Below, piece by piece: positions 35,182 through 60,825 of a DNA stretch of 64,000 bases. The notes below the pieces were generated by a model. It did no database searches, had not been told where the DNA came from, and saw only the letters and a list, made by a program, of their open reading frames with translations. Within the stretch, counting starts at the first letter, position 1, and each line of letters opens with the position of its first letter. A program made the position numbers and the translations under genes. The DNA comes from a virus, in IMG/VR virus record IMGVR_UViG_3300046008_000291, positions 96,001-160,000 of that record, one strand, 5' to 3'.

Positions 35182-35210
35182 TTGACAACTTAATACAAAT
35201 GTCTTATACT
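35182..35210 (+). promoter_or_regulatory. Near-consensus sigma70 promoter TTGACA-17 bp-TATACT
   Basis: TTGACA at 35182-35187, 17-bp spacer, TATACT at 35205-35210, immediately after the stop of the last structural gene. Confidence 0.85.
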
Positions 35211-35241
35211 ATAGGTAAGTTATTTTGACTTACCTATTTTT
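35211..35241 (+). terminator. Intrinsic terminator ending the late structural transcript
   Basis: Perfect 10-bp stem ATAGGTAAGT (35211-35220) / ACTTACCTAT (35228-35237), 7-nt loop, then a short T run to 35241. Confidence 0.65.
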
Positions 35242-35257
35242 ATGGCTAATTACTATT

Positions 35258-35575
35258 ATGACAACAGAAATTACTCAACTAGTTGCTCAAATTAAACAAG
35301 CAACGGATTATCAAACCAACAAACGCATACTTAAAGAAAAAATACAAACGGATTTACATGTTCCGTATAACAATGGACTCTTTAAAGTAACACCGGAACT
35401 TATAGCATTCCTATCAACTTGGACTGCTGATACTTTATATCTTGAAGATACCTACGAAAATCCTATAGAAATACAACGACTAGCATTTTTAGAATTGTGT
35501 CGGCAACACTATCAACAAGTTATGAACGAATGGCATATTCAATATGACGAAATCCGACGTGCCCGCAAAGTCTAA
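35258..35575 (+). CDS. Hypothetical protein (105 aa)
   Basis: ORF-track TTG start at 35225 falls inside the hairpin; ATG at 35258 is preferred. Overlaps the next gene. Confidence 0.7.
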   Translation: MTTEITQLVAQIKQATDYQTNKRILKEKIQTDLHVPYNNGLFKVTPELIAFLSTWTADTLYLEDTYENPIEIQRLAFLELCRQHYQQVMNEWHIQYDEIRRARKV

Positions 35576-36320
35576 AGGTGTTGTATTATTTGCTGTTAAC
35601 ACTGCCACAGTCGATTATGTTCGAATCGCTGAGCAGGCCGCACGTTTAATTAAACATACTCTAAACTTACCTACTACCATTATCACAGATCCGGGCGTAC
35701 CTAGTTTAAGTAACTATCGCACCGGCCATGCTGGCGGCACAGAATGGAAGAACGGTGGCAGATATCGTGCGTACGAACTTAGTCCCTATGATGAAACTAT
35801 CTTACTTGACAGTGACTACCTACAGTTAGATACAAGTTTATTAACCATACTCGAAACCACTGTCGATTATAAGTTAATGCACTACAACCAAAGCCCTCAA
35901 CAGTCAATGTCGGGCAACATGGGTCAGTTAAGTTTAGATTATGTATGGGCCACTGCTATAACATTTAAGCGTACAGATAAAACACAAATGTTATTTGATC
36001 TAGTTGGTCGTATCGAACGTAACTATGCTTACTATCAAAAACTATATCACTTAAGAGAACGTAATTTCCGCAATGATTATGCGTTTGCCATTGCCAACAA
36101 CATTATTAATGGGTACACTACTAACACTACACAAAGTATACCTTTTACCATGTTAACCTTGGATAAACTAATTAAAAACATTGAAATAACAGGCGAAAAG
36201 ATGATTATACGCGAAGAAAATTCTGCACATGTCATTGCCCTGCAAAACATACACGTAATGGATAAAGATTATTTGCTTAGTGAAAAGTTTGATCAATTGG
36301 TGGACACAGTATGCGCATAA
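35544..36320 (+). CDS. GT-A fold glycosyltransferase-like protein (GT8-like)
   Basis: KGVVLFAVN..VDYV..A; LSPYDETILLDSDYL with a DxD motif; RNDYAFAIA. Confidence 0.62.
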   Translation: MTKSDVPAKSKGVVLFAVNTATVDYVRIAEQAARLIKHTLNLPTTIITDPGVPSLSNYRTGHAGGTEWKNGGRYRAYELSPYDETILLDSDYLQLDTSLLTILETTVDYKLMHYNQSPQQSMSGNMGQLSLDYVWATAITFKRTDKTQMLFDLVGRIERNYAYYQKLYHLRERNFRNDYAFAIANNIINGYTTNTTQSIPFTMLTLDKLIKNIEITGEKMIIREENSAHVIALQNIHVMDKDYLLSEKFDQLVDTVCA

Positions 36321-37168
36321 CACCACATCAAGCACAGCAGGGGTTTATGACCATTGCGCAGAATACAGCAGAGGTTGATTACTTACAGCTTGCTTACGTA
36401 CAAGCAATGAGTATTAAACTGACCATGCCTGGCAGTTCGTACGCAGTAGCAGTTGATAAGAATACACTTGAACAGGTAACAGAACAACATCGAAAGGTGT
36501 TTGATTATGTAGTTACTATTGACAATGACCTAGCCCAAGACGAAACTTGGAAGTTATCAAATGAATGGCAGGCATTTTATCTCACACCATTCAAAGAAAC
36601 AATTAAACTCGAAAGTGACATTGTATTCACTAGAAGTATTGCGCATTGGTGGACTGCTTTTAGATTAAAGAATGTTGTACTAAGCACAGGATGTAGAGAT
36701 TATCAGCAAGAGTTAAGCGCATCACGAGAATACAGAAAGTTATTCGACGATAATGAATTGCCCGATACTTACAACGGGCTAATGTATTTTAGATACAGTC
36801 GTGAAGCCACTGAATTCTTTATGTTAGCAGAACAAATATTTAAAAATTGGGCCTATCTACGTGACAACGTATTACTTAACTGTCGCGATGATAATCCTAC
36901 TACCGATGTTGTTTATGCTCTAACTGCAAAGTTACTTGGTGTAGAAGATTGCACATTGCCCAGCTTAGATTTTATTAATTTTGTACATATGAAGCCGGCA
37001 ATTAACGCATGGACCAGTACACCCTGGCCTGAGTTAGTTGTATGCGAAACAGACTTACCAATGATACGTATTGCCAACACCAATCAATATCACCCCATAC
37101 ACTATCATGAAAAGTCCTGGGTAACACCTGAATTAATCAAGGAGTATGAACATGAACTCTTTAAGTGA
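36311..37168 (+). CDS. GT-A fold glycosyltransferase-like protein, paralogue of 35544 (GT8-like)
   Basis: QGFMTIAQN..VDYLQLA; LTPFKETIKLESDIVF (ExD at the DxD position); YNGLMYF; TDVVYAL; FVHMKP. Confidence 0.6.
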   Translation: MRITPHQAQQGFMTIAQNTAEVDYLQLAYVQAMSIKLTMPGSSYAVAVDKNTLEQVTEQHRKVFDYVVTIDNDLAQDETWKLSNEWQAFYLTPFKETIKLESDIVFTRSIAHWWTAFRLKNVVLSTGCRDYQQELSASREYRKLFDDNELPDTYNGLMYFRYSREATEFFMLAEQIFKNWAYLRDNVLLNCRDDNPTTDVVYALTAKLLGVEDCTLPSLDFINFVHMKPAINAWTSTPWPELVVCETDLPMIRIANTNQYHPIHYHEKSWVTPELIKEYEHELFK

Positions 37169-37502
37169 ATTTGAAAAAGCATTGGCCATGCTCAAACCCA
37201 TTGTAGAAGAAGTTAAAGAATATAGATTGCACTATGATGAACTTGGAATCATTACAATGTGTACAATGATCAATCACCCAACGGATACTAACTATATTGT
37301 TGTTAGTCGAGATGAATATGACAACTATTTCCGTTATACAATTGTAGATAATAAGCTGAAAAAGATTGACAACAACCCTGGTTATCGTGTACAATTAGCT
37401 AGTAGTACCACTGGCTACGCCACAGTAAAGAAACATGCAGGAATACTAATAGAACCAACTGACACCTATCAGGATATAGAATACTATGACACAAATCGTT
37501 GA
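37146..37502 (+). CDS. Hypothetical protein
   Basis: 118-aa ORF overlapping both neighbours; no recognisable motif. Confidence 0.7.
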   Translation: MNMNSLSEFEKALAMLKPIVEEVKEYRLHYDELGIITMCTMINHPTDTNYIVVSRDEYDNYFRYTIVDNKLKKIDNNPGYRVQLASSTTGYATVKKHAGILIEPTDTYQDIEYYDTNR

Positions 37503-38382
37503 TATAGCAGATTTAGCCTGCATCTATCTAAGCTACGATGAACCTAAGAAAGAAGAATTTTGGATCAAGATTCAAAACATGGTTCCGTGGGCTAAACGTG
37601 TAGATGGGGTTAAGGGCAGTGATGCTGCCCACAAAGCCGCGGCGGCTGCCAGCGACACCGAACGCTTTGTATTAATAGATGGCGATAACTTGCCCGATCC
37701 AGAATTCTTCAACCTGCAACTTACACTGGATGATACCAATCGAGATGTAGTATTCCGTTGGAAGGCTCGTAATCACATCAACGGACTTATGTACGGCAAT
37801 GGTGGCATGAGTTGTTGGACCAAGGACTTTGTCAACAACATGCGCACACACGAAGCCAGTGATGGTGCAGATGATACAGCTATCGAGTTTTGCTTTGACC
37901 CACGCTATTGGGCAATGAATGATTGCTACAGTACAACATACCCAAATCAAAGTTCATATCAAGCCTGGCGAGCTGGATTCCGTGAAGGTGTTAAGATGTG
38001 CTTGGATCGTGGCACAAAGCCAAGCCTTGGTGAATTTGAGCGACGTGTACACGCACGCAACTATGATCACTTGAGCATATGGCACAATGTGGGCATGGAT
38101 GTAGAGAATGGTGACTGGGCTATGTATGGTGCTAAACTAGGCACATATATGACCATGATTACGGATTGGGACTACAGAGAAGTACAGGACTTTGATGCAC
38201 TGAATCGTATCTGGGAGCAAAACAAAGTATTAAATCTAGTAGAAGAATGTAACGAAATGTCACATACATTAAGTGTAAAATTAGGATTGCCTGCTCCGCA
38301 TTTTACAGCGGCGCAGAGTAGATTTTTCAAACATCACTACAAGAGCGTATTTAAGAACAAAGGTATAATGTCGAGAGAATGA
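37486..38382 (+). CDS. Glycosyltransferase (GT-A, GT2-like)
   Basis: IYLSYDEP, VDGVKGSDAAHKAAA, FVLIDGDN (DxD), YGNGG, AWRAGFREGVKM. Confidence 0.68.
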   Translation: MTQIVDIADLACIYLSYDEPKKEEFWIKIQNMVPWAKRVDGVKGSDAAHKAAAAASDTERFVLIDGDNLPDPEFFNLQLTLDDTNRDVVFRWKARNHINGLMYGNGGMSCWTKDFVNNMRTHEASDGADDTAIEFCFDPRYWAMNDCYSTTYPNQSSYQAWRAGFREGVKMCLDRGTKPSLGEFERRVHARNYDHLSIWHNVGMDVENGDWAMYGAKLGTYMTMITDWDYREVQDFDALNRIWEQNKVLNLVEECNEMSHTLSVKLGLPAPHFTAAQSRFFKHHYKSVFKNKGIMSRE

Positions 38383-39251
38383 GATTACACGATACTAATT
38401 TAGTAAAGTATTTTTCATATATCCCAGAAGTTTGGCGAACTTATCCTGTTTATCCATATAATTTCATTGATCGAAATTCAAATACATTAGTGGTTACCAT
38501 TGGTGACAGCTGGACATTTGGTGCTGATATTTGTCTAGATGATTATGCAATGTCTCAGGAAAGATTAGACAAGATGTATGGAAACATCGTTGCATCTAAC
38601 TTGGGTGCCGACTTCTTAAGCCTGGGACAGAGTGGTACTTGTAATTTATATATAATTAATAAAATAACAGAATTAGACACCCTTATTCCGCAATTGGATT
38701 ATACTAATATTATAATCATATGCACATTTACCGAAGCATGTCGAACATTCGATGGACCGTTTGACAAACACAACGATTATGTCACGTGGTTTAGTAACCA
38801 AACATTTGATTCAGTTGATAAGTTTGATTCTATTATAAAATATCATAATGGACTACAACAGGATTCAATAGTTGAATTAGCTGCAAAATATCAACACGTT
38901 AAAGTAATAGTGGGTACTAACTTTGTTGATCCTATTGGCATGAATCCAGCTATAACAATCTTATCTAAAAGTTGGCTGCAGGTATACAGCGAACAAATAA
39001 TTAATCAAGAATATCTCGGTCATTGTTATATTATGTCGCATTGGGTATTGGACAAACTGCCCGGAATCATTACTGGATTTAAACCAGATATAGATCGAAC
39101 TTTATTATTGCAGTGGATGTGTGGATTAACTGAATCAGCAATGACACGAAAACAATTAGTATCAGACTCCTGTTATTTTAGAGGAATCAATCATCCACTT
39201 GCTGAAGGTCATCGAGTATGGGCTGATTATCTATTAGAGCAACTGCAATGA
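38379..39251 (+). CDS. SGNH/GDSL-like hydrolase or acyltransferase
   Basis: VVTIGDSWTFG (block I), LGQSGTCN, C-terminal NHPLAEGH. Confidence 0.65.
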   Translation: MRLHDTNLVKYFSYIPEVWRTYPVYPYNFIDRNSNTLVVTIGDSWTFGADICLDDYAMSQERLDKMYGNIVASNLGADFLSLGQSGTCNLYIINKITELDTLIPQLDYTNIIIICTFTEACRTFDGPFDKHNDYVTWFSNQTFDSVDKFDSIIKYHNGLQQDSIVELAAKYQHVKVIVGTNFVDPIGMNPAITILSKSWLQVYSEQIINQEYLGHCYIMSHWVLDKLPGIITGFKPDIDRTLLLQWMCGLTESAMTRKQLVSDSCYFRGINHPLAEGHRVWADYLLEQLQ

Positions 39252-40213
39252 ATACGTATACACTACAATTAGAAAATGATCAGTTGCACAATATTACTCC
39301 ATTTATTAAATTCTGCCGTGATCACGAACATACAGATATTAAGTTAATTGTAAATCAAGAATCACATTGCTTGCAATTTTGTGGAGTGTATGCAATACTC
39401 GATTTATTTACATTTACCTCAGTTACTATTGTCACTGCTAATGCTGTTGAATGCCACGATAGATATAGAATTGTTATTAATTGGGCATATTGGTTAAAAC
39501 AATCTAGAAAATTTAAAACATCAAATGACTATACGTGGAATCAAACAAAAATATTTGGATGTTTTTACGGAAGACCTAGTGCACCTCGGGTTGGCATTGC
39601 AGGCCATTTAGCGCAACATTATAATGACAAAAGTTTATTACAATTAAGATTTAATACAGACAGTGAAGATACACGCAAGTTGGTTGATATACAAAAACTA
39701 TTTGCCTGGGATATAACTGGCGCAGCTAAATTAGATCAGTTGGTGCAAAATAAAGAACAATATTTTCAACCTATACCTGCATACGAGTACACCACTGGTA
39801 GTTACGATTACAATAGTGATCTTAATAACCTATACAAAAATATTTTTGTAGATATTGTAGTCGAAGCTACAACTTTAGGTAATACATTTTATCCTACTGA
39901 AAAGATTGCACGTGCAATATTGTGTAGAAAACCTTTTATTGTCATGGCATCTAAATTTTATCTTGGCTATTTAAAACAAATAGGATTTAAAACGTTTGAT
40001 GAATATTGGCCCGAGCTATATGATAACGCAGATGGTAAAGCACGATATCTTGCTATCTTAGAATTAATTGATCGTCTGGCAAAATTATCAACAGCAGAGT
40101 TGGTAGAGTTAAATATTAAAATGCAACACACTATAGAATATAATCGTCAGTTATTAATAGCTCAACAATATAACAAGCAGGTTACAAGAATCATTCCGCA
40201 TTATGAAAACTAA
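39248..40213 (+). CDS. Glycosyltransferase-like protein (GT10 fucosyltransferase-like motif)
   Basis: VDIVVEAT...FYPTEKIARAILCRKPFIV resembles the GT10 YxTEK motif. Confidence 0.45.
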   Translation: MNTYTLQLENDQLHNITPFIKFCRDHEHTDIKLIVNQESHCLQFCGVYAILDLFTFTSVTIVTANAVECHDRYRIVINWAYWLKQSRKFKTSNDYTWNQTKIFGCFYGRPSAPRVGIAGHLAQHYNDKSLLQLRFNTDSEDTRKLVDIQKLFAWDITGAAKLDQLVQNKEQYFQPIPAYEYTTGSYDYNSDLNNLYKNIFVDIVVEATTLGNTFYPTEKIARAILCRKPFIVMASKFYLGYLKQIGFKTFDEYWPELYDNADGKARYLAILELIDRLAKLSTAELVELNIKMQHTIEYNRQLLIAQQYNKQVTRIIPHYEN

Positions 40214-41597
40214 AAGCGACTTTATGTCAACGGCAGAAGAAATGAAGGACAAGTTAGGTCCTGCACTCTGCTTGGCTAAATGGCAACAGGTAAGTCTACA
40301 CTTGCCTACAGGACTTACTAATAGTTGCTATCATCCACCGTTACATGAAATTGATAGTGCACCGCTAGTGTTTAACCCGGGTGCCTTACACAATACAGCA
40401 CATAAAAAACAACAGCGTAAACTTATGTTAGAGCAACAACGTCCAACAGAATGTAGCTACTGTTGGAGTGCAGAAGACAATAAGCAACTAAGTGATAGAC
40501 ACTATCGTAGTGGTGAGCCATGGGCAGCTGAACACTACGAAACTATAGTAAATGCACCTTGGGATCAAGACGTTGTACCAAGTTATGTTGAAGTAAACTT
40601 CAGTCACGGCTGTAACCTAGCCTGTAGCTATTGCAGTCCACAGTATAGTACAGAGTGGGGCAAAGATATTGACCGATGGGGAGCATATCCTACTAGCACT
40701 CCACACAATGCACCTGAACATTTTGAAGGCAGACGTAAGCCTATTCCTGTACGTGCGGAAAATCCCTATGTAGAAGCATTTTGGCGTTGGTGGCCAGAAC
40801 TGTACGGCAGTTTAAAACACTTCCGTATGACGGGTGGCGAACCCCTGATGGATAAGAATACGCATCGTGTGTTTGATTACATACTTGCCCTGCCTAAGAG
40901 TGATCTACACGTTGACGTAACCAGTAACTTTAGTGTGGATAGTAATCTGTTTAAGAAATACATAGATAAAGTTAAGCAACTATGTGAAGGTGAACGCATT
41001 GAACATTTTATGCAGTATGTTAGCCTAGACACAGGCAACAGCGAGCATGCAGAATATATTCGCGACGGTCTACATTATTTTAGATGTATGTCTTATGCGC
41101 ATCAATTTCTAACTGACATTCCTTATCGCAATAGTCTAACGTTTATTATCACAATGAATAATTTAAACATACTAGGATTGCGACAATTACTTGAATCGAT
41201 ATTAGAGATGCGTAAAAAATACAGTTCGACCTATCAACGTGTATGGTTTGATACACCGTTGTTACGCAGTCCAACATATCAAAGTTTACAAATATTACCA
41301 GCAAGTTATGTTCGCATATTAGAAGATGTTGTTACCTTTATGCGAGCAAATCAGGCAGACGAAACAGCTGATAACTTCGAAGGCTTTAAAGATTATGAAA
41401 TACAACGTATGGAACGTAATGTTGAATGGATGAAACAAGGTTGCGAACTTGCCGCAGACTATGTTACAATACAAAGAGCAGACTTTTATAAGTTCTTCAA
41501 TGAATACGATAAACGCAGAGGATTAATATTTTTGGAAACGTTCCCACAAATGAAAGAGTTTTGGCAGGAGTGCAAATATCATGCCGAAAATAGCTAA
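40203..41597 (+). CDS. Radical SAM protein with N-terminal twitch/SPASM-like domain
   Basis: CNLACSYC, TGGEP; N-terminal LCLAKW...SCYHP and ECSYCW. Confidence 0.9.
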   Translation: MKTKSDFMSTAEEMKDKLGPALCLAKWQQVSLHLPTGLTNSCYHPPLHEIDSAPLVFNPGALHNTAHKKQQRKLMLEQQRPTECSYCWSAEDNKQLSDRHYRSGEPWAAEHYETIVNAPWDQDVVPSYVEVNFSHGCNLACSYCSPQYSTEWGKDIDRWGAYPTSTPHNAPEHFEGRRKPIPVRAENPYVEAFWRWWPELYGSLKHFRMTGGEPLMDKNTHRVFDYILALPKSDLHVDVTSNFSVDSNLFKKYIDKVKQLCEGERIEHFMQYVSLDTGNSEHAEYIRDGLHYFRCMSYAHQFLTDIPYRNSLTFIITMNNLNILGLRQLLESILEMRKKYSSTYQRVWFDTPLLRSPTYQSLQILPASYVRILEDVVTFMRANQADETADNFEGFKDYEIQRMERNVEWMKQGCELAADYVTIQRADFYKFFNEYDKRRGLIFLETFPQMKEFWQECKYHAENS

Positions 41598-42957
41598 CGA
41601 AACAGATTTAGAATATAAGCGCAGAGTAATTGACATTAAGTCAGAATCATTCTGCGCGGCTAAATGGTATAACGCTACTATATGGTTAGGGTCAGGACAG
41701 ACTACCAGCTGTCATCACCCATTGCCGCATGCTATTGACCTAGAAGCAATTAAAACTAATCCCAGTGCTATCCATAACACTCCGCAAAAGAAATTAGAGC
41801 GTAAACAGATGCAGGTAGGTGATCGTCCTAGCGGATGCGAATACTGCTGGAAGATTGAAGACATGTATAAAGATCCTAAGTATGATGGGGTTGATGTACC
41901 AACTCCTATTAGTGATCGTGTGTACAAAACTGTAATTTATAACGATGAGGATTTAAACTATGCATACAATTTACCTTCGGATCAAGATGTTAACCTCCGG
42001 ACTTTGGAAATCGCCTTTGACCGCACTTGTCAGTTTGCTTGTAGCTACTGTAACCCTGCATTTAGCACTACTTGGGTTAAAGACATTCGGAATAACGGTG
42101 CCTACACCGATTTGGTGTCGGATGGACGTAACCACTTTACTCATACTCATGATAGCAATCAATTGTTTAAGCTCGATGAAGTTAATCCTTATGTCGAAGC
42201 GTTCTTCAAATGGTGGGAAACAGACCTGCACAAGACGTTAAAAGAACTGCGCATCACAGGTGGCGAACCGTTAATGTCAGGATACACCTGGCGTCTAATA
42301 GAATGGTTTCAAAAGAACAAAGGACAAAGTACTACACGTCTTGCTATCAATAGTAATTTAGGATTTGAGAAAGATAAATTAGAGAGGTTATTAGATGCTA
42401 CACAAGGTATCGAATTGGATTTGTACACTAGCAATGAATCGTGGGGCCGTCATGCAATGTATATACGTGATGGCTTGGATTGGGATCAATGGGTTAGCAA
42501 TGTACAGTATCTATTGGATAGCAAGAAACTGCGAGGCCTACATGTTATGTGTACCATCAATGCTCTATGCTTACTAAGCCTTACTGATTTGTTATGGATG
42601 ATAGTAAAACTTAAACGCACTTATGGCAAGGATGCAATTAACTTTAGTCTAAACATCTTACGATTCCCTAGTTTCCAAAGTCCGTTGATCTTGCCTATGG
42701 AGATACGTGAACAAATGGCCGAAGACCTACAACAATTTGGCGAAGCGGCACACAGTGAACTACACGAATCTGAATATAATCAATTGACTAGATTGATTGA
42801 GTACTTACAGACTGTAGACAGCCCACACAGTGGAGCACTATCACGTGAGATTTTACAACGTGACTTTAAGAACTTTTATCAGCAATACGACCAGCGGCGT
42901 GGTCTAGACTTTAAATATACATTTACACAATTAGCGGACTGGTACGACACACTATGA
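41581..42957 (+). CDS. Radical SAM protein with N-terminal twitch/SPASM-like domain
   Basis: CQFACSYC, TGGEP; N-terminal FCAAKW...SCHHP and GCEYCW; close paralogue of 40203. Confidence 0.9.
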   Translation: MPKIANETDLEYKRRVIDIKSESFCAAKWYNATIWLGSGQTTSCHHPLPHAIDLEAIKTNPSAIHNTPQKKLERKQMQVGDRPSGCEYCWKIEDMYKDPKYDGVDVPTPISDRVYKTVIYNDEDLNYAYNLPSDQDVNLRTLEIAFDRTCQFACSYCNPAFSTTWVKDIRNNGAYTDLVSDGRNHFTHTHDSNQLFKLDEVNPYVEAFFKWWETDLHKTLKELRITGGEPLMSGYTWRLIEWFQKNKGQSTTRLAINSNLGFEKDKLERLLDATQGIELDLYTSNESWGRHAMYIRDGLDWDQWVSNVQYLLDSKKLRGLHVMCTINALCLLSLTDLLWMIVKLKRTYGKDAINFSLNILRFPSFQSPLILPMEIREQMAEDLQQFGEAAHSELHESEYNQLTRLIEYLQTVDSPHSGALSREILQRDFKNFYQQYDQRRGLDFKYTFTQLADWYDTL

Positions 42958-49759: not shown

Positions 49760-49835
49760 CAGAATTAAATTAGAAATAACTTATCGTAAAAAATTAAAAG
49801 CATTACGTAAGCGTGATCCATTTATCTATAAGTAA
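49734..49835 (+). CDS. Small basic protein (33 aa) MNWLKTLYNRIKLEITYRKKLKALRKRDPFIYK
   Basis: Manually translated; fills the only gap in the operon, and its TAA overlaps the next ATG (TAATG). Confidence 0.7.
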   Translation: MNWLKTLYNRIKLEITYRKKLKALRKRDPFIYK

Positions 49836-52348: not shown

Positions 52349-52760
52349 ACACCAAACAGCACACATGCGAGCCGCACATATCTACGCTGAACTAAGCACA
52401 GCACGTAGACTTAAAGTGGGCGCACTTGTAGTTAAAGATGATAGAATTGTATCAATTGGCTACAACGGTATGCCCAGTGGATGGGACAACAACTGTGAAT
52501 ATGATTTAGAAGATGGAAATATTAAAACTAGACCGGAGGTATTACATGCAGAAACTAACGCACTTGCGAAATTGGCTAGAAGTACTGAGTCTGGTCTTGA
52601 TGCTGATTTATTTGTTACTCATAGTCCTTGCTTGGATTGTGCCAAGCTCATATATCAGAGTGGTATTAAACGAGTATTCTATGCTACTGCTTACCGCGAT
52701 AATTCCGGGATTAATTTCCTTAAATCTTCGGGTATTGACGTAGAGCAACTAGATGTTTGA
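52338..52760 (+). CDS. cd: dCMP deaminase
   Basis: KVGALVVKDDRIVSIGYNGMPSG, HAETNA, SPCLDC (zinc deaminase motifs). Confidence 0.92.
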   Translation: MKPKHQTAHMRAAHIYAELSTARRLKVGALVVKDDRIVSIGYNGMPSGWDNNCEYDLEDGNIKTRPEVLHAETNALAKLARSTESGLDADLFVTHSPCLDCAKLIYQSGIKRVFYATAYRDNSGINFLKSSGIDVEQLDV

Positions 52761-55161
52761 TGTGTTCTACACGGGCCCAAAGCCTGGCTTATTTCCATTT
52801 GAACTGCCAGCTGATACACTAGCGGAAGCTGCTAGTTTAAGTCGTACTAAGTTTTTTTGGTTCGTCGATGGACAAAATGATTACACAGGATTTGATTTTA
52901 ATTTTCAGGCAGTGCCTTGGGAAGAACATCAAATACACACATGGCCAAATCAATGGCAGGTTGACGGAGGTGTATATTTTGCTAACAAATATACTATACA
53001 AGATCGTATACATAATTACCATTCAGACACCTATACACATCGACTACCCAACTTAGATTATTGGGATTATCGTGACTGTGACCCTGCTAGTGTAGATCAA
53101 CGGTGGGCACCAGATCCATTGGATCCTCCTTACATCTATCAGTTTCCTGTTAAGTGGGGGCGCGAGCAAGTAGATGGACCACGGTATTGCGTACCAGGTG
53201 CCGCAGAAGTAAAATACCTATACGACTTTACAGCAGAGTTTAATCCACAGTTAGAATTATGGACTGTACCAGAAGAAATTAATGCTGAAGATATTGATTT
53301 TACCTGGCGACCTGATCCTGACCATCCTCCTTACATCTATCACTTTAGTTCAGAGTTCCAAGTGAGTTCTGGATTAACCTATACAGTGCCTGGTGCAGTC
53401 GATGTCAAGTTTGTGGACATGATGCCCACTAAGACGGGCAATGCTATACAGGTCTTGGACATATTCTTTATTGATAAAAGCAATGCCAGCGCGGCTGTGC
53501 GTTATGAAATGTTAGTAGATGAATATCCGCATGCACAAAAGATACGCTATGCCAATTCAATGATGGATACTATTGCTCGATGTGTTACACGCAGTAAGAC
53601 CAGTAAGTTTTGGATAGTCAGTAGTGAAAACATTTACACAGACTTTAACTTTAGTTGGCACGCTGAACCTTGGCAAGGCCACATGATGCATGTGTTTGGA
53701 TCACAGCATCAAAAGTGGAGCGATACCTACTTAATTAATCGCAGTGAATTTACTCGCTGTAGGGCGTGGGCTCGGAATCTAGAAGAGTTTCCTAATCTGC
53801 ATTTTGTCACAGATCAGCCTGTGTATATTCCTGATGACCTGCATGACATATACTTTGTTGATCACGGTAATGACAATGATCAACTTGAACAACTGCAAAA
53901 GAAACACCCCGATATCAAATCAACTCGTTATGTTGATAACTACCTCGATACCTTTAAGCGTATTATGTCAACTGCTTCAACAGAACATGTATGGATAATC
54001 AGTAGCCTATGTGATTATACACGCTTTGACTTTAGTTGGCAACCGGAACCCTGGCAGAAAGAAATGATACATGTGTTTCCTAGTGCTAACCAAGCTCGTG
54101 GTGATACATTCTATATACATGTTGAATCATTTAAACAACAGATGGTTGAACTTGCTCTGTTAGATTGGTTCAACGTTATTAACTACTGTGAAGAACAGCG
54201 TGTTCCAAGACTACCTATGCCCGTGCATACTTACCAAGGAGATAATTTAATCACTGCGGTTAGCGAACACGAGTTTAAACATCCATATACTTGGTTTTGT
54301 AAACGAGATCGTGGTATAGTGTATAACCCTAGCATTTGGTACGCAAAAGATAAGAAAATCGTCTCGTTTACGCCCGATAATAGCTATGTTTTGGCACCGA
54401 GAGAGGCCAAAAACTATATCAGTACACAAGTATACTATTATCCATATATTGATAAAATACCGACGTTTTATAGCCCTCAACAGGATATTATTTTTATCAG
54501 TTATGACGAAGTTGAAGCCGATGCTAACTGGGCCAAGCTAGGTAGTAAATATCCTAATGCTAAAAGACTGCATGGTGTAGAGGGAATGGAAAATGCTCTA
54601 CGTGCGGCTGCTGAATTAAGCGAAACTGAATGGTACTACGCTGTATTTGCTAAAACAGAAATACATCCTGGGTTTGAATTTGATTTTAGTCCTGATTACT
54701 TTCAATTGCCCAAGCATTATATATTCTATGCACACAATGAAGCCAACGGATTAGAGTATGGTTATGCAGGAGTTATATTATACAATGTTAACCTTGTTAA
54801 GACTGTGACTGAATTTGGTATTGATTATACTATGAGTGCACCGCATGCTGTTATACCTAAACTAAGTGCTATTGCACATATAGGCGCAACTCCGTATCAA
54901 GCCTGGCGCAGTGCATTTCGTGAATGTGCAAAACTTGCACAGATACATGAAGAAACTGGCTGTATTGAAACTAAACATAGACTACACACATGGACAACCA
55001 CAGCCCGTGGGCCTAATGCTGAATGGATATTAAAAGGTGCCAACGATGGTGTTGCCTTTTATTCAGCCAATAAAAATTCCCATCAAACACTTAAACAAGC
55101 ATTTAGATGGGAATGGTTAGCTAGGCAGTTTGCGGAATTGTATCCCGAAGTTGATCGATAA
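52753..55161 (+). CDS. Multi-module glycosyltransferase-like protein (tandem degenerate GT-A repeats)
   Basis: Four modules of type DI(F/Y)F...A...S.T..FW.V....Y..F.F.W; the last (IFISYDE...YGYAGV...AWRSAFRE) is paralogous to 37486; two WxPDPxxPPYIY repeats. Confidence 0.65.
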   Translation: MFDVFYTGPKPGLFPFELPADTLAEAASLSRTKFFWFVDGQNDYTGFDFNFQAVPWEEHQIHTWPNQWQVDGGVYFANKYTIQDRIHNYHSDTYTHRLPNLDYWDYRDCDPASVDQRWAPDPLDPPYIYQFPVKWGREQVDGPRYCVPGAAEVKYLYDFTAEFNPQLELWTVPEEINAEDIDFTWRPDPDHPPYIYHFSSEFQVSSGLTYTVPGAVDVKFVDMMPTKTGNAIQVLDIFFIDKSNASAAVRYEMLVDEYPHAQKIRYANSMMDTIARCVTRSKTSKFWIVSSENIYTDFNFSWHAEPWQGHMMHVFGSQHQKWSDTYLINRSEFTRCRAWARNLEEFPNLHFVTDQPVYIPDDLHDIYFVDHGNDNDQLEQLQKKHPDIKSTRYVDNYLDTFKRIMSTASTEHVWIISSLCDYTRFDFSWQPEPWQKEMIHVFPSANQARGDTFYIHVESFKQQMVELALLDWFNVINYCEEQRVPRLPMPVHTYQGDNLITAVSEHEFKHPYTWFCKRDRGIVYNPSIWYAKDKKIVSFTPDNSYVLAPREAKNYISTQVYYYPYIDKIPTFYSPQQDIIFISYDEVEADANWAKLGSKYPNAKRLHGVEGMENALRAAAELSETEWYYAVFAKTEIHPGFEFDFSPDYFQLPKHYIFYAHNEANGLEYGYAGVILYNVNLVKTVTEFGIDYTMSAPHAVIPKLSAIAHIGATPYQAWRSAFRECAKLAQIHEETGCIETKHRLHTWTTTARGPNAEWILKGANDGVAFYSANKNSHQTLKQAFRWEWLARQFAELYPEVDR
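53123..53342 (+). repeat. 19-bp direct repeat ATCCTCCTTACATCTATCA (53123-53141 and 53324-53342)
   Basis: Exact copies encoding the PPYIY core of two internal protein repeats. Confidence 0.9.
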
Positions 55162-56107
55162 AATCCTGCGCTAATAACCAATCAAGATATGCAGGAATGC
55201 CCTGTTCGATATCCCATACAGGTGTATAGTCTAGCATGTGTTTAATCTTATCGCTGTTAAGTGTATCGCGATTAGGATAAAACGCATCATGTGGTTTAAT
55301 AATAATTTCACCACCTAATCTTTGTTGTACAAGTTCAGCGGCTTCTAAAATAGTGCGCCCACGGCCACGTGTACAGTTAAAGATTTGATTAACTGCTGCC
55401 GGATTCAATGCGGCTTCTGTAAAATACCCTGCAACATCTTCTACAAAACTAAAATCTAGTCGATTATCTGGACCCTGTACTGTGATAGCACCATTGCGCA
55501 ATGAACCTGCAGCCATTTGACTTATAACACGTACTACCATATCGCGTGTACCATACAAAGCACTTGGTCGCATAATAACATATTCTAAGTCATGATCCTG
55601 TGCCCAGATCTTAACCATACGCTCACCTTGCAATTTGTAACTACCGTATAGGGTTAATGGATCACAGTCAGCAGTTTCATCCGGTGCGGCAGTTTTAAAT
55701 TCACCGTAGACCATACTACTAGACGCAAATACAAGTCGTTTAACGTGATGTTGTGTGCAATTTAATAATATGTTAGCAGTAGCACTAACCATGTTATTGG
55801 CGGCATCAACAGGATTACGGTGCACCATCTTAGCATTGGGATATGTTGCCACATGAATAACAACATCTGGTTTAAAATCATTAAACACACCATTAATAAA
55901 CAACTGATCTTCGATGCGTCCTTTGAATACTTGGTCGGCATCAGCTAGTGCAATACGCTGTGCCAGTACTGGGTTATATTCCCAGTCTGGAAATGTATAG
56001 TATTGATGATAGCAGTCCACTACACCGATAGTATGTCCTAATGCTTTGAGTTTACTACTGGTATGACTACCAATAAAGCCGTGTCCGCCTAAAATTAATA
56101 TTTTCAT
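55121..56107 (-). CDS. NAD-dependent epimerase/dehydratase (extended SDR)
   Basis: GGHGFIG, ASSSMVYG, YGSYK (YxxxK), RPSALYG, DFSFVED. Confidence 0.92.
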   Translation of the reverse strand: MKILILGGHGFIGSHTSSKLKALGHTIGVVDCYHQYYTFPDWEYNPVLAQRIALADADQVFKGRIEDQLFINGVFNDFKPDVVIHVATYPNAKMVHRNPVDAANNMVSATANILLNCTQHHVKRLVFASSSMVYGEFKTAAPDETADCDPLTLYGSYKLQGERMVKIWAQDHDLEYVIMRPSALYGTRDMVVRVISQMAAGSLRNGAITVQGPDNRLDFSFVEDVAGYFTEAALNPAAVNQIFNCTRGRGRTILEAAELVQQRLGGEIIIKPHDAFYPNRDTLNSDKIKHMLDYTPVWDIEQGIPAYLDWLLAQDFIDQLRDTIPQTA

Positions 56108-57162
56108 TTGAATGTCCTTAATGCATTAGTGATAGTGTTAATTTCTTCATCGGTTAATGTGTGTTGACAGGGTATGCCTAGACTACGTTCACTTAACCAT
56201 GTGCTATTATGTAATACAACATCACACAGATATAATTCTTCTTCGTGTACCAGTGGTTGGTAATACACTTGACTATCAACTCCGTGGGCTGTTAAATGAT
56301 CTCTTAATTGCTGTCTAACTTCTAAATCTGCACATCGAATAATAAATTTATGCCAGGTATGTTGACCTCTAGTAGTGGGAGCAATTAGTCTATCACTGGT
56401 AATGTTTATTATAAACTCTTCTGCTATGGATTGTCTACGGTCACGCCATTGTTGATGATGATCGACACAACACAACACCTGTGCCGCTTCTAGGCTACTC
56501 ATCATACTATTAGCACCAGCAGTAATAGCCACATCGCTATTGATGTTCTTACCATGTGTGCGCCACTTACGTGCCCACACAGCAAATTCATCATCATCTG
56601 TTAGTATTGCACCGCCACTGCCAAATGCTGGAATTGTTTTTGTTGGACTAAAGCTAACTGCACTGGCTATACCCTGGGCAAGACTACTACGACCTTGTCT
56701 ATCAAACGTTTCTATGCTTTGTGCAGCATCCATAACAAACGGAATGTCTAGGTCAGCTATCTTATCATAATCTTGTGCTAGTCCAAACAGGTCAACACCT
56801 ACAATACCATTTAATCCGCCAATGTCATTTAGTTTTACATGATAGTTAGCATCCACATCAAGGAATATAGGAACTAGTCCGGCTCGTTCGATGGCATTAA
56901 CTGTGGCAATAAATGTATAGCTAGGTACACCTATAAGAGATTCTTCAGGGAAATGGTACTCTAAAATGCAACGTAAGGCGTCTGTACAGCTAGCAACTGT
57001 GATAGCATGCTTGCGACCACTATAATCGCATAACCACTGCTCTAACGCTAAAGTGCTAGGACCTTTTTGAGCCCATCCTTGACTGGCAACTAGATCCATA
57101 CCGGCAAGTGCGGCATGTCTGATCTCAGACCAGATACGATCTAATTGAAATAGCTTGATCAT
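56104..57162 (-). CDS. DegT/DnrJ/EryC1/StrS PLP-dependent sugar aminotransferase
   Basis: SCTDAL, YTFIATVNAI, DAAQS, SFSPTKTIPAFGSGGA. Confidence 0.92.
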   Translation of the reverse strand: MIKLFQLDRIWSEIRHAALAGMDLVASQGWAQKGPSTLALEQWLCDYSGRKHAITVASCTDALRCILEYHFPEESLIGVPSYTFIATVNAIERAGLVPIFLDVDANYHVKLNDIGGLNGIVGVDLFGLAQDYDKIADLDIPFVMDAAQSIETFDRQGRSSLAQGIASAVSFSPTKTIPAFGSGGAILTDDDEFAVWARKWRTHGKNINSDVAITAGANSMMSSLEAAQVLCCVDHHQQWRDRRQSIAEEFIINITSDRLIAPTTRGQHTWHKFIIRCADLEVRQQLRDHLTAHGVDSQVYYQPLVHEEELYLCDVVLHNSTWLSERSLGIPCQHTLTDEEINTITNALRTFK

Positions 57163-57800
57163 TTAATACAACGATACCGAACTTCGAAAGATTCTGCATA
57201 GGTACTACCCAACATCTGTCCACGTAGTGCAGATTGGCCTTTGATATTGTGCAGTAATGTATCACTAAAGTAGCTATCATAACATTGGATAGCTTGAATT
57301 TTTGTATCGATGTATGGAGCAATGTCTACAAATATATTAGGTACGAATTCCTTGTTACGATTAGTATAAGGTCCGCCTTCCATGCACCATAGTTCGCCTT
57401 GATAACGACGTAGACTACTGTTGACGATATGGAAAGTATTTACATGATCCTGATGATGATCGCCCGGGCTGTGTGTGATGACTAAATCATACTCTTTGCC
57501 CTGCATGTAGGAATCAAGTTGTTCTACAGTGGCACTATCCCATTCCAATACAGGGCGACCAGTTGCATCTAATCGATTATTGAGAAAGGTAAACTTAGTA
57601 CCAATGACCCGTTCACTTGCTGAATATTCAGCAACCATTTTATCCTTGTCACGCCACACGCTTGGACGCGGCACATTGTCATTACGTGCTACTACAATAT
57701 CAAATTCTGCACCTTGATCACGGAATTTTAATAACGTACCCAAGCAACCTAATTCAATATCATCTGGATGTGCGCCCACTGCTAAAATACGTTTATACAT
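57159..57800 (-). CDS. PIG-L/LmbE family N-acetyl-sugar deacetylase
   Basis: VGAHPDDIELGC and HHQDH zinc motifs. Confidence 0.92.
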   Translation of the reverse strand: MYKRILAVGAHPDDIELGCLGTLLKFRDQGAEFDIVVARNDNVPRPSVWRDKDKMVAEYSASERVIGTKFTFLNNRLDATGRPVLEWDSATVEQLDSYMQGKEYDLVITHSPGDHHQDHVNTFHIVNSSLRRYQGELWCMEGGPYTNRNKEFVPNIFVDIAPYIDTKIQAIQCYDSYFSDTLLHNIKGQSALRGQMLGSTYAESFEVRYRCIK

Positions 57801-58656
57801 TTAATTTCCTTGACATTAATTCTACCGTTTGTGTTACTCTTAACATATGATCCATATCTGCTCTTGGCTTATCACCACTATCAACACAGCGCATAAAGTC
57901 TTGTATCTGCGCTTCTAGTGGCGACTGCTTGGGATTAAGCTGCACCACCGAAGTCTTTGCTTCTTTAAGATTGCCCTCGGCATACCCGCCTTCAGTAATA
58001 TGCAACGCTGTGTCATCTAACCATATCTGGCATTCATCACAGGTAATAACAAATTCTCTAACTTTAGTAGGCCACTGCCATCCTAATATTATTGTAGCAC
58101 CTTTATTAGGATATGTCAATCCAAATTGTGCATAATCATATTGCGGACTATTATTTAAATGAGTACCGTTCCCGTCAATAGTCAGCGGTAAACTATTGGT
58201 TAACTTATCGATTACACTGATATCATGCGGAGCCAAGTGCCAGGCTAGATCTATATTAGTCTGTAGTCTACCCCAATTTAGTCTGCGACTTTCTACGTGA
58301 CGCACATTTAATGTTGACACAAGTTTTAACATATATTCTATGTTTGGTTGGAATAAAAGTATATGACCAGCTTGGTAGACTAGGTCCTGTGATCTAGCTA
58401 GCTCATTTAATTCTTGTTGTTCCGCTACGCTCATACAAGTAGGTTTCTCGCACAATACGTGAATGCCCTGTTCAAGATACCATTTGGTCATTGTGTAATG
58501 TTGATCGGCTGGTGTGGCAATAATAACAGCATCTAATGTTTTATTCTGCCAACTGTCGCCGTTCTTAATATCCATGATGACAATAATAGCCTGATTACTA
58601 GCACTATTAACAATTTTGCTACCCCAATAACCTGCACCTGCTATGCCTAGTTTCAT
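57793..58656 (-). CDS. Gfo/Idh/MocA family oxidoreductase
   Basis: GIAGAGYWG, IATPADQH, VLCEKP, LAPHD. Confidence 0.92.
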   Translation of the reverse strand: MKLGIAGAGYWGSKIVNSASNQAIIVIMDIKNGDSWQNKTLDAVIIATPADQHYTMTKWYLEQGIHVLCEKPTCMSVAEQQELNELARSQDLVYQAGHILLFQPNIEYMLKLVSTLNVRHVESRRLNWGRLQTNIDLAWHLAPHDISVIDKLTNSLPLTIDGNGTHLNNSPQYDYAQFGLTYPNKGATIILGWQWPTKVREFVITCDECQIWLDDTALHITEGGYAEGNLKEAKTSVVQLNPKQSPLEAQIQDFMRCVDSGDKPRADMDHMLRVTQTVELMSRKLNV

Positions 58657-59708
58657 TTGAATTCTCTTTTAACAGTAGTGGCAATTAATTCAACTTCACT
58701 ATCAGTTAGAAACTGATGTGTAGGTATGGCTAAATTCATTCGACTATAATATTCTGTATTAGGCAACTGAGCATTGATATTATATGCAGGCTGTTTGTAG
58801 GCAAGATTGCTGTAATATCTACGTGATTCGATATCTTTTGCTTTAAGTGCGGCTTCGATTTGTTCTGACTGTTCACTTAATACAATATATTGATGCCGTA
58901 CATTGTACCCTTGCGCAAATTGCGGAATAACCTCAAACAAGTTTTTAAATTGTTCGTCGTAGTATGCAGATATTTCTCTGCGACGACTGTTCCATTGATC
59001 TAAATGTGGTAATTTGTTATCAAGTAATTCTGCTTGTATACTGTCCAATCGACTATTATATCCTACATGACTGACATTGAATTTACTTTCTTGTCCGTGA
59101 TTGCGTAGCTTTTTAATAGTAGCGGCATAGTCTGCATTGTTAGTAGTAACTGCACCACCATCACCCAAGCAACCTAAATTCTTAGTAGGATAGAAACTAA
59201 AGCAGGTTAGATCAGTAACACTGCCAACCATGCGATCTTTATATCTGGCACCAGTGGCCTGTGCCGCATCGCTGATAGTAGCTACTGGAAACTTAACCTT
59301 ATCCCAATCACATGGCTGACCAAACAGATCCACACCGATTATGGCCTTGGTACGACTATCTACAGCAGCCAAGGCATCATCCATGTTCATGGTTAGATAT
59401 TGATCAACATCAACTAGGCGTATCTCTGCACCTAAGTTAGCAATAACTTCGTATGAGCTTAACCAAGTAAGTCCTACAGTAATAACATTGTCGCCGGGCT
59501 TAACACCTACTGCATCTAAACTTAATCGTAGTGCGTCTGTGCAATTGCCTACGGCAATAGCATGTTCTGCTTGTGTATAAGCGGCAAAGTTGCTTTCAAA
59601 GTCGCGCACTGCTTTGCCTAAAATAAAGTCCTGTCTAGTTAATGTGCCTGCACATAATTTATCTAAACTATGTTCGCGCTCATAATGAAAATCACTTAAT
59701 TTAATCAT
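58653..59708 (-). CDS. DegT/DnrJ/EryC1/StrS PLP-dependent sugar aminotransferase
   Basis: GNCTDAL, DAAQATGA, SFYPTKNLGCLGDGGA, YNSRLDSIQA. Confidence 0.94.
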   Translation of the reverse strand: MIKLSDFHYEREHSLDKLCAGTLTRQDFILGKAVRDFESNFAAYTQAEHAIAVGNCTDALRLSLDAVGVKPGDNVITVGLTWLSSYEVIANLGAEIRLVDVDQYLTMNMDDALAAVDSRTKAIIGVDLFGQPCDWDKVKFPVATISDAAQATGARYKDRMVGSVTDLTCFSFYPTKNLGCLGDGGAVTTNNADYAATIKKLRNHGQESKFNVSHVGYNSRLDSIQAELLDNKLPHLDQWNSRRREISAYYDEQFKNLFEVIPQFAQGYNVRHQYIVLSEQSEQIEAALKAKDIESRRYYSNLAYKQPAYNINAQLPNTEYYSRMNLAIPTHQFLTDSEVELIATTVKREFK

Positions 59709-60667
59709 ATTTTATAATACTCAGAATTAATAAACCAGTTATAATATTTGTAAAAACCTTGTTCTACATCTACTGTAGGTGTGTAGCCTAAATCTTGTTG
59801 AGCACGGCTAATATCTAATTGACCGCGTTTAGGAAAACTCAAATCTCGTGGACCAACTACTAATTGCCCTTGACCGGCAATTTTAATAGCAAGTTCGGCA
59901 GCATCTTTAAGTGTCCATTGACGTTGCTCACTGCGTGTGATATTATAGATGTTACCATTGGCCTTATCAAGTGTTGCGGCCAATACAATACCTTGAGCAG
60001 TATCTTCTACATAGGTAAAGTCCAGAACTTCATCTGGACCATGCACCTTAAGAGTCTGACCTCGCATGGCAGCCAGCATGAACTTACTGACCACACGGTC
60101 TTCGACATCCCACTCACCATATACAGCACTAGGACGAATAATCACATGCTCAAAGCATCCACGTCGACTATAGTCTTCTACAAGTTTCTCGCCCATGTAT
60201 TTCATAATACCATATTGGCCCTGCGGAGTACAATGAGCTGATTCTGTAACATCTGAGGTAAAGTCACCGTATACCATACTAGAACTTATATAGACAAACT
60301 TTTTAATATTATGTTCTTTGCTTAATTCTAGTAGGTTGATCAACCCAGTAGTCATAACTTCACTGGCTAGTGCAGGATCTTGTTCTACTACTTTTTGTCT
60401 AGGAAAGCTGGCCATATGAATAATCACATCTGGCTGTTCAGTAGCAAACAAGCTGTTTAATCGTGTTTGGTCACGTATATCAATTTTATACGTTTCGCTG
60501 GTGTAGCGAGTGCGTCTGTGCGCAGCCAAGTATATAATCTCTGCAGTAGGGATAAAACCGTAGTTAGTAAATGTGTCTACTACAACACATTCATGACCTA
60601 GTGCTTCTAAGAAACGTGTAACATTGTGCCCAATAAAGCCAGCACCACCTGTGATAAGATATTTCAT
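59705..60667 (-). CDS. NAD-dependent epimerase/dehydratase (extended SDR)
   Basis: TGGAGFIG, ISSSMVYG, YGIMK (YxxxK), RPSAVYG, DFTYVED. Confidence 0.93.
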   Translation of the reverse strand: MKYLITGGAGFIGHNVTRFLEALGHECVVVDTFTNYGFIPTAEIIYLAAHRRTRYTSETYKIDIRDQTRLNSLFATEQPDVIIHMASFPRQKVVEQDPALASEVMTTGLINLLELSKEHNIKKFVYISSSMVYGDFTSDVTESAHCTPQGQYGIMKYMGEKLVEDYSRRGCFEHVIIRPSAVYGEWDVEDRVVSKFMLAAMRGQTLKVHGPDEVLDFTYVEDTAQGIVLAATLDKANGNIYNITRSEQRQWTLKDAAELAIKIAGQGQLVVGPRDLSFPKRGQLDISRAQQDLGYTPTVDVEQGFYKYYNWFINSEYYKI

Positions 60668-60825
60668 CTACCGCGGCCCGCTGATTTTTTAGTAGGCTTG
60701 TTACTAGCAACTTTACCTTTAGGTGTGCCCTTGCCAGTATCAACGGTTAAGTTGGTATGAGTGATGTTTTGTTCTGCTTGTTTCTTTTCTAATGCCTGCT
60801 TGACTAAATCTTTAAGTGATGCCAT
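60664..60825 (-). CDS. Small Lys-rich protein (53 aa)
   Basis: Manual translation MASLKDLVKQALEKKQAEQNITHTNLTVDTGKGTPKGKVASNKPTKKSAGRGR; AAGGA SD; stop overlaps the next ATG (ATGA). Confidence 0.72.
   Translation of the reverse strand: MASLKDLVKQALEKKQAEQNITHTNLTVDTGKGTPKGKVASNKPTKKSAGRGR

Follow-up and report, generated by a model that had tools for sequence, protein, structure and literature searches.

Why do aquatic T4-type phages keep sugar, radical-SAM, and carbamoyl genes beside their fibre genes? We approached this question through a window of 64,000 nucleotides from the IMG/VR virus record IMGVR_UViG_3300046008_000291 (by window we mean this whole stretch, which is 25172-89171 of a 105,119-base IMG/VR virus record with a CheckV completeness of 29%). 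Behind the fibre genes of this phage lies an island of glycosyltransferase-like, radical-SAM, carbamoyltransferase, and sugar-nucleotide genes (35182-60825). The island is abundant in lakes, yet none of its core genes has a demonstrated function. We think that there is about an even chance that it is a composite, cytoplasmic glycan-tailoring system that works on an acceptor made by the phage. Its main interest lies in an untested family of radical-SAM enzymes together with a cassette of a micropeptide and a carbamoyltransferase. If the system were solved, this would give the first reaction for a radical-SAM family that is catalogued but unstudied (NCBIfam NF033640). It would help to explain why such genes are kept beside fibres, and it would tell us whether large phages put glycans on their particles, produce modified peptides, or change the surface of their hosts.

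Radical-SAM array and glycosyltransferase-like core

The island has five radical-SAM genes in tandem, with six domains (40203-47866, + strand; the genes start at 40203, 41581, 42954, 45499, and 46577, and 42954 is a fused pair). A sequence-only reading of this DNA had counted them in the same way, and all five match NF033640 (N_Twi_rSAM) with scores of 199.8-715.3 bits, above the curated cut-off of 170. A seventh domain of this kind is encoded outside the island, by a gene on the - strand between homologues of gp47 and gp55 (4309-5625, 256.6 bits). When scored one by one on the DNA, the seven domains of the window reach 197.5-393 bits, and all are above the cut-off. The cysteines of the CxxxCxxC motif (C132, C136, and C139) are invariant across these domains, as are C8, C79, and C82 of the N-terminal twitch and the glycines and proline of GGEP. 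PCC is found in 5 of the 7 domains, and the 40203 and 41581 types have a lone cysteine. In having a cysteine-rich twitch ahead of CxxxCxxC, the seven domains resemble the rest of their family. What the family name does not convey is that here they form an array of five orthologous lines of paralogues that is tied to genes with a glycosyltransferase fold. Our searches of the literature on NF033640 turned up neither a member that had been studied nor a reaction that had been named.

The members of the array seem to have diverged long ago. In a likelihood tree of 58 radical-SAM domains, there are five orthologous clades (40203, 41581, 46577, and both halves of 42954), with support from the Shimodaira-Hasegawa-like approximate likelihood ratio test (SH-aLRT) of 95-100; 45499 and 4309 are singletons on long branches. 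Each of the five clades spans phage lineages, so the duplications predate the lineages and every copy has been retained. This retention argues for five distinct steps, as opposed to gene dosage. The fused gene 42954 corresponds to two separate genes in the related loci L015 and L016, and the arrays of relatives hold from 5 to about 11 radical-SAM domains. The alignment of the window's seven domains was too diverse to serve for a genome scan.

Between the fibres and the array lie the putative glycosyltransferases. The first island gene encodes a small soluble protein of about 110 residues (35243-35575, + strand) that has no match in Pfam or PHROGs. It is kept at 30-97% identity in the related loci L009-L017 and is 29% identical to RsoM2USA_354, from a cultured Ralstonia jumbo phage. 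It is followed by two paralogous candidates for GT8-like glycosyltransferases (glycogenin-like, with a GT-A fold; 35544-36320 and 36311-37168, + strand). A joint profile of these two and their homologues matches glycogenin-1, which belongs to GT8, with E = 7.5e-6 over profile positions 8-112 (about 105 N-terminal positions). There is no match to Glyco_transf_8 in Pfam, where the best lead is Mannosyl_trans3 (E = 0.012). D103 is invariant in this family. The orthologues of 35544 and 36311 in the cultured phage are RsoM2USA_353 and RsoM2USA_352.

The third candidate of the core (37486-38382, + strand) has an invariant DxD (D65-x-D67) and a predicted GT-A fold. In its AlphaFold model (predicted local distance difference test score, pLDDT, of 76), residues 3-156 align with GT-A chains with a VIA-align Z of 9.5 and a root-mean-square deviation of 3.4 for 139 aligned residues, and the scores of sugar nucleotidyltransferases, which share this fold, are close behind those of the GT-A enzymes. 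The fold neighbours include the capsid glycosyltransferase of PBCV-1 and A197 of STIV. Foldseek's top rows are mostly of GT2 type and all are weak (E >= 1.8e-3), Pfam's GT2_3 is reached only at E = 0.018, and sequence and profile searches of the PDB with 37486 gave nothing useful. A homologue is present in 14 of 14 related loci, and RsoM2USA_350 is 41% identical. The profile of the 37486 family also matches residues 578-730 of an 802-residue multi-module protein at the end of the + run (52753-55161; E = 2e-22). This protein is present in all relatives, and its last module is a GT-A domain without DxD. We set aside a reading of it as four modules: these are visible in the consensus, but just one is statistically supported. 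So four of the five proteins that had been called glycosyltransferase-like from the sequence (35544, 36311, 37486, and 52753) find support in profiles or folds.

The core is not an accident of one assembly. The gene order is the same in independent ENA and Logan assemblies, and 97-99% of the sampled words of 40203-49759 are found in freshwater and lake metagenomes from 17 studies, which rules out a chimera with a bacterial O-antigen locus. Relatives of the fused radical-SAM gene occur in 14 viral contigs, and a metagenome protein search with one radical-SAM gene returned at least 8,000 candidate homologues. Down to 30-45% identity, the relatives share a run of the small protein, the two GT8-like proteins, the GT-A protein, and the radical-SAM array. 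In the closer lineages, the array is followed by a 47841-type protein and the carbamoyltransferase. In every lineage that we looked at, the island keeps its place behind the fibres and varies in content. In the deep L021 lineage, for example, a giant protein and fibres are again immediately upstream.

RsoM2USA keeps this order in its genes 361-348: a giant protein (361), a short-chain dehydrogenase/reductase (SDR; 358), a fibre-like protein (355), the small protein (354), two GT8-like proteins (353 and 352), a GT-A protein (350), an N_Twi radical-SAM protein (349), and another GT-A protein (348). We count this conserved order, from giant protein through fibres to radical SAM, in favor of glycan tailoring. 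Together with the 14 contigs, it also bears out that the genes co-occur in related phages. A second unit, about 93 kb away, has a radical-SAM gene (202, 50% identical to 41581) and a carbamoyltransferase gene (199, 47% identical to the island's). The authors of the RsoM2USA genome identified ORF361 and ORF356 as virion proteins and did not mention the radical-SAM or carbamoyl genes. Because this version is reduced and split, it makes the question experimentally approachable.

Sugar supply, cellular location, and expression

If the island tailors a glycan, then it would be made of three separable units; the chemical steps, their order, and the acceptor are what we infer. The first unit would be the core beside the fibres, i.e., the small protein, the two GT8-like proteins, the GT-A transferase, N_Twi radical SAM, and the multi-module GT-A-like protein. 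The second would be a 33-residue micropeptide with an SGNH-like protein and the carbamoyltransferase, linked to further radical-SAM paralogues. The third would be an exchangeable module on the converging strand that supplies a sugar nucleotide. Early in infection, soluble transferases would link activated sugars into a short glycan, and they would build it on an acceptor supplied by the phage. The most plausible acceptors are the fibres or the giant virion protein, or else the micropeptide. Each of the five anciently diverged radical-SAM paralogues would perform a different radical step on the acceptor or the glycan, SGNH-like enzymes would act in acylation or deacylation, and the carbamoyltransferase would attach a carbamoyl group.

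The sugar module (55121-60667, - strand) encodes, by Pfam, two SDRs (55121 and 59705), two DegT aminotransferases (56104 and 58653), a PIG-L deacetylase (57159), and a Gfo/Idh/MocA oxidoreductase (57793). These assignments, like that of the carbamoyltransferase, had been made from the sequence alone and were confirmed by Pfam and NCBIfam. The best NCBIfam names are 4,6-dehydratase/GalE-like for the SDRs, PseC-like and DesI-like for the aminotransferases, UDP-GlcNAc 3-dehydrogenase-like, and BshB1-like, all below the equivalog cut-offs. A 4,6-dehydratase, a 3-dehydrogenase, two transaminations, and de-N-acetylation would lead to an amino-dideoxy or diamino hexose. The six-gene version is common to the relative G002 only. 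In other relatives, what lies between ThyA and the big glycosyltransferase-like protein is an SDR of the 59705 type with a single DegT, which suggests that the shared building block is an amino-dideoxy-hexose.

Where would these enzymes act? In a hydropathy scan, 23 of 25 open reading frames (ORFs) of the island were free of 19-residue hydrophobic segments; 39248 and 41581 have single weak windows. Among the same 25 ORFs, we detected no member of a flippase, polymerase, or initiating-transferase family. Therefore, the chemistry is probably cytoplasmic. Two further observations favor glycan tailoring. First, the slots of the island that vary (copies of 39248, the size of the array, and the sugar module) behave like a diversifying surface-related locus. 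Second, in phage P-SSM2 the carbamoyltransferase gene is likewise found among sugar genes (for heptose and nucleotide sugars) and near a tail-fibre-like gene.

The island begins with a promoter of its own. Right after the last fibre gene, a 12-bp hairpin and a T run interlock with a sigma-70-type promoter, TTGACA-17-TATACT (35182-35240, + strand); the hairpin folds at -12.9 kcal/mol. This element is identical in L009 and L014. In L016 and L017, different TTGACA-17-TATACT/TATAAT promoters are found at the same site, so a sigma-70-type promoter stands there in three lineages, which fits an island that acts early to tailor a glycan. Promoters of this type are frequent in the putative early region of the record. 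The late motif has another distribution. On its + strand, the window has seven copies of the heptamer ATAAATA, each immediately 5' of a structural gene, and TAAATAC is also found 5' of the genes at 17255 and 30819; neither was found at the start of the island. Of the T4 consensus TATAAATA there is a single occurrence in the 64 kb, where 11 would be expected, so it is strongly avoided elsewhere.

The lone radical-SAM gene at 4309-5625 may be co-regulated with the island. Its promoter (4263-4292) and that of the island (35182-35210) share an exact 10-base box, GACAACTTAA, which overlaps the -35 element along with the beginning of the spacer, and the 105-kb record has no other exact copy. Contigs from RNA libraries, which come from one lake sample and cannot prove transcription, strand, or level, cover 34000-53999. 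At 35166-35202 they are interrupted and the depth falls about two-fold, while a DNA contig runs across this site; we take this as a weak indication of a transcript boundary.

The micropeptide cassette and competing explanations

An unannotated micro-ORF of 33 codons (49734-49835, + strand) has a Shine-Dalgarno site upstream, and its stop overlaps the next ATG. It is followed by an SGNH-like protein (49835-50485, + strand) and a carbamoyltransferase of the NodU/CmcH/TobZ type (50451-51950, + strand). The latter scores 136.7 bits for Carbam_trans_N and 160.7 bits for Carbam_trans_C (the gathering cut-offs are 24 and 27), and it reaches 157 bits against the NodU equivalog NF041651, whose cut-off is 1000, so it belongs to the superfamily and is not NodU. 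The C-terminus of the micropeptide, ...RKRDPFIYK, is invariant across 10 loci, including RsoM2USA, with synonymous codon changes beneath it. By this pattern of codons, the micro-ORF is under purifying selection at the protein level.

We surveyed viral contigs with a back-translated pattern of the motif and obtained at least 120 loci (L035-L154). Among the matches listed, the stop directly follows the motif in 111 of 120 viral loci, the ORFs are mostly 33-51 residues, and a carbamoyltransferase lies downstream on the same strand in 94 (within 250 nt in 69). In other words, what looks like a precursor peptide with a conserved core stands next to predicted maturase genes, and the 33-codon ORF is found in at least 111 viral contigs. 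Among cultured phages, we saw the micro-ORF only in RsoM2USA, where it adjoins the 41581-type radical-SAM gene and the carbamoyltransferase gene, apart from the glycosyltransferase unit. (It is unannotated there, at record positions 125894-125986.)

Several observations weigh against glycan tailoring. The invariance of the micropeptide suggests that at least some of the island's enzymes work on a peptide. No homologue has a known product, acceptor, or activity. The island is a separate transcription unit of early type that lies outside the late structural operon. Sequons for N-glycosylation (N-x-S/T) are not enriched in the virion proteins; one fibre has a z of 2.3, which comes from a tandem repeat. 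The GT-A domain of 52753 has the consensus FAK where DxD is expected, and 39248, the fifth of the proteins that had been called glycosyltransferase-like, we have to leave unplaced. Finally, two bacterial loci with an N_Twi gene, from metagenome-assembled genomes (MAGs), have no sugar context.

So perhaps the product is derived from a peptide. The micropeptide would be the substrate or the scaffold; it would be carbamoylated at its C-terminal FIYK, cross-linked or edited in another way by the radical-SAM enzymes, and glycosylated by GT-A enzymes to give a glycopeptide or a cofactor that resembles a ribosomally made peptide with post-translational modifications (RiPP). We consider this unlikely, though well worth bearing in mind. 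There are precedents for such chemistry: HypF, a carbamoyltransferase of the YrdC/Kae1 type, carbamoylates the C-terminus of HypE, and glycosyltransferases take part in the synthesis of mycofactocin. Radical-SAM enzymes with SPASM or twitch domains often mature small peptides, and the weak secondary NCBIfam matches of the island's radical-SAM proteins are to peptide maturases. The selection on the micro-ORF, its place 5' of the carbamoyltransferase, and the arrangement in RsoM2USA all fit. On the other hand, we found no RRE/PqqD-like domain or leader peptidase by Pfam in the scanned island proteins (up to E <= 10 for the unplaced ones), and a divergent RRE could escape such a search. Also, the N_Twi family is without a known peptide substrate, and the micropeptide could be a subunit or a translational leader. 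The loci that we checked in the cyanophage P-SSM2, the pelagiphage HTVC008M, C48C1, and Vibrio phage K566 do not have a DPFIYK-type micro-ORF, and the cyanophage and pelagiphage carbamoyltransferases manage without such a peptide. A peptide-anchored product that combined carbamoylation of DPFIYK, five lines of N-terminal-twitch radical SAM, and an amino sugar made by the phage, all early in infection, has a similarly small chance of being right. If it were, it would provide both the first reaction and the first substrate for NF033640.

We are doubtful, and a little more so, about remodelling of the host envelope. In this case, the transferases would act at the inner face of the membrane on the core of the host's lipopolysaccharide (LPS) or on O-antigen precursors, and the benefit would be exclusion of superinfecting phages or fewer progeny lost to debris. 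An early-type promoter would suit this purpose, and the sugar-nucleotide enzymes resemble those of O-antigen pathways. GT8 enzymes act mainly in LPS biosynthesis and are the commonest glycosyltransferase family in pelagimyophages, where modification of the O-chain has been favored (PMC7029224). However, the same core is found in phages of probably very different hosts (a Ralstonia phage from soil and phages from lakes), which fits an acceptor supplied by the phage better. Nor did we detect a membrane-associated component or a ligase among the island's proteins, and the position beside the fibres is strictly conserved.

It also seems improbable that there is no common product, i.e., that the island is a hypervariable dump for independent auxiliary genes behind the fibres. 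RsoM2USA splits two of the units, the sugar module is part of another operon and is swapped between relatives, and identity along the island is mosaic. The sugar genes are part of a converging run of nucleotide-metabolism genes. These facts do count against the single system that had been proposed from the sequence, and they are why we speak of units. But a mere dump would not explain why the order of the glycosyltransferase and radical-SAM core and its translational coupling persist to 30-45% identity, or why five clades of paralogues are retained together.

Hypermodification of the phage's DNA, in which the transferases, the kinase, and the carbamoyltransferase would put a modified sugar on bases as a defense against restriction, is very improbable: there are a dCMP deaminase and a P-loop kinase within the island, ThyA and DHFR genes adjoin it, its expression looks early, and phages are known to glycosylate their DNA with a variety of glycans (Pyle et al. 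2024, cited in PMC12619734), but the window's record and three relatives (G000-G003) have one ThyA-family gene each and a fourth relative (G005) has none (the records are 29-62% complete), the window's ThyA passes the equivalog cut-offs for thymidylate synthase and is paired with DHFR as in ordinary dTMP synthesis, no hydroxymethylase or deazaguanine genes were seen, and the deaminase has a recombinant pattern of identity unlike its neighbours.

Described systems and the remaining genes

Among published descriptions, the closest to the island is that of a host recognition cluster in marine T4-type phages, which is linked to the tail fibres and was described from the genomes of pelagimyophages as having glycosyltransferases and radical-SAM cassettes (PMC7029224). 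A T4-like viral genome with 12 radical-SAM genes has also been reported (PMC5332604). So the claim that there is no precedent does not hold, as islands that combine glycosyltransferases and radical SAM with fibres have been described genomically; none of those in these two papers has been characterised. The cluster of pelagimyophages and cyanomyophages is likewise a variable island that is contiguous with tail-fibre genes and has glycosyltransferases, sugar-nucleotide genes, and radical-SAM cassettes. Our lineage differs in being jumbo, in its fixed syntenic core and N_Twi array, and in the coupling of a micropeptide to the carbamoyltransferase.

Other viruses glycosylate their own particles. 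Chloroviruses and mimivirus encode the glycosylation of their capsids or fibrils. In virion glycosylation systems, soluble glycosyltransferases encoded by the virus act in the cytoplasm on virion proteins, and in giant viruses amino-sugar pathways are included. We know of no radical-SAM enzyme, carbamoyltransferase, or micropeptide that is part of glycosylation in mycobacteriophages, chloroviruses, or mimivirus. Mycobacteriophage virions are glycosylated as well (Freeman et al. 2023, as cited in PMC12619734). We considered whether the moraphages (PMC12619734) are the same lineage as our phage, and they appear to be a different one.

Among peptide systems, mycofactocin and PQQ resemble the island in having a tiny peptide with an invariant C-terminus beside radical-SAM enzymes that have auxiliary clusters. 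Unlike these systems and HypF-HypE, the island has no RRE/PqqD partner or peptidase that we could find, and DPFIYK matches none of those precursors. The sequence-only reading had also drawn a parallel with aminoglycoside pathways, which we do not support: none of the 25 island ORFs has a DHQ_synthase domain by Pfam, as would be expected of the 2-deoxy-scyllo-inosose synthase of a butirosin-type pathway, the twitch is N-terminal and so is not of the BtrN type, and no BtrN-type structure was among the PDB profile matches of the radical-SAM proteins. What survives of the glycan-building idea is a capacity for glycan tailoring, from sugar-nucleotide tailoring enzymes and proteins with a glycosyltransferase fold; the aminoglycoside analogy and the picture of one system do not.

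N_Twi genes also occur in other settings. In one of the two MAG loci (a Crocinitomicaceae contig, L027, 31-8481), the N_Twi gene is beside two PhyH dioxygenases, a B12 radical-SAM gene, and cytochrome c, along with a UbiA prenyltransferase, a WelO5-like halogenase, and an FGE-sulfatase-like protein. From its gene content, this locus looks like a cluster for tailoring a small molecule, and not like a sugar locus. In the cultured, KVP40-like Vibrio phage K566 (L029, 8956-15698), there are four divergent N_Twi-type genes with no island-type glycosyltransferase or carbamoyltransferase nearby.

As for the phage itself, the window encodes homologues of gp46/gp47-type SbcCD, a gp55-type late sigma factor, a gp5-type hub, and a gp6-type wedge, and therefore its phage origin is confirmed. 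The closest cultured relatives of the wedge are in the jumbo phages Atu_ph07 and 121Q (about 35% identity). Judging by its genes, the record is that of a T4-core jumbo phage from freshwater that is widespread in lakes. Upstream of the island are a 4,504-residue protein and four fibre-like proteins. The former is a single ORF (17255-30769) between the baseplate wedge and the fibre genes, and it is partly homologous to the virion protein ORF361 of RsoM2USA. Late-promoter-like sites, (A)TAAATAC, stand 5' of structural genes at 6541, 13406, 13820, 17222, 30778, 30807, 32880, 34176, and 34203. A scan for sigma-70 and terminator consensus sequences over 44-64 kb gave counts equal to those in shuffled sequence.

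The two gene runs are convergent and overlapping, just as the sequence-only reading described them. The + run extends from 35225 or 35243 to 55161 (ORF coordinates), and the - run covers 55121-60667 plus a 53-codon ORF that reaches 60825. Nearly all gene junctions overlap, and where the runs meet, tail to tail, they share 41 nt. Much of the + run is hard to annotate. The seven ORFs at 35225-40213 gave nothing in Pfam or PHROGs at standard thresholds, ten island proteins without a family had zero matches in PHROGs, and megablast of 20.8 kb against cultured phages had zero matches. That earlier list of genes had missed the dCMP deaminase, the cyclophilin-like-barrel protein 47841, the micro-ORF, and two small proteins.

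Three proteins had been called SGNH-like, and for all of them this label stands at the level of motifs, without a Pfam family match. In 48941-49759 (+ strand), the GDS...N...H pattern is invariant; 49835 is its paralogue and has a weak match to DUF6071. In both, the N-terminal GDS and the C-terminal histidine are invariant, and the best PDB profile match is a GDSL protein, which is weak (E = 0.017). The third, 38379-39251 (+ strand), has GDSW near its N-terminus and HPLxxGH near its C-terminus and is labelled from these motifs only. It has no homologue in loci L009-L022 and was found in the independent assembly L023, so we have seen it only in the window's own strain.

The family of the gene at 39248-40213 (+ strand) has no name and is very large, with 11,666 cluster representatives at E <= 0.001, and relatives have 1-3 copies per island. 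Its identity as a glycosyltransferase is unproven: no Pfam family was found in 32 members, and there was no PDB sequence match. Its TEK motif may be akin to that of GT10 fucosyltransferases. A 118-residue protein (37146-37502, + strand) has no family match and is present in close and mid-distance relatives. The protein at 47841-48941 (+ strand, 366 residues) is predicted to be a cyclophilin-like beta barrel with a helical insert; its AlphaFold model has a pLDDT of 73 and a VIA-align Z of 10.3 to cyclophilin-fold chains. It had no match in Pfam, Foldseek, the ESM Atlas, or a PDB sequence search. It is conserved, its predicted helical insert is long, and many histidines, tryptophans, and cysteines are invariant.

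Between the carbamoyltransferase and the multi-module protein are two genes that may have arrived recently. The 133-residue P-loop kinase-like protein (51947-52348, + strand) had been read as APS-kinase-like. APS_kinase is indeed its best match in Pfam (29.9 bits, with a cut-off of 21.1), as a partial match, and the protein is below all NCBIfam cut-offs. The dCMP deaminase (52338-52760, + strand; dCMP_cyt_deam_1, E = 3.4e-22) is probably a passenger from nucleotide metabolism. The stretch 51947-52760 is 99-100% identical to L012 (the deaminase is 100% identical), as compared with 64-71% for the flanking genes, which suggests recent recombination inside the island. At the far end of the - run, a 53-codon ORF (60664-60825, - strand) encodes a basic, lysine-rich protein. 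It has a Shine-Dalgarno site, and it overlaps the first SDR gene by ATGA.

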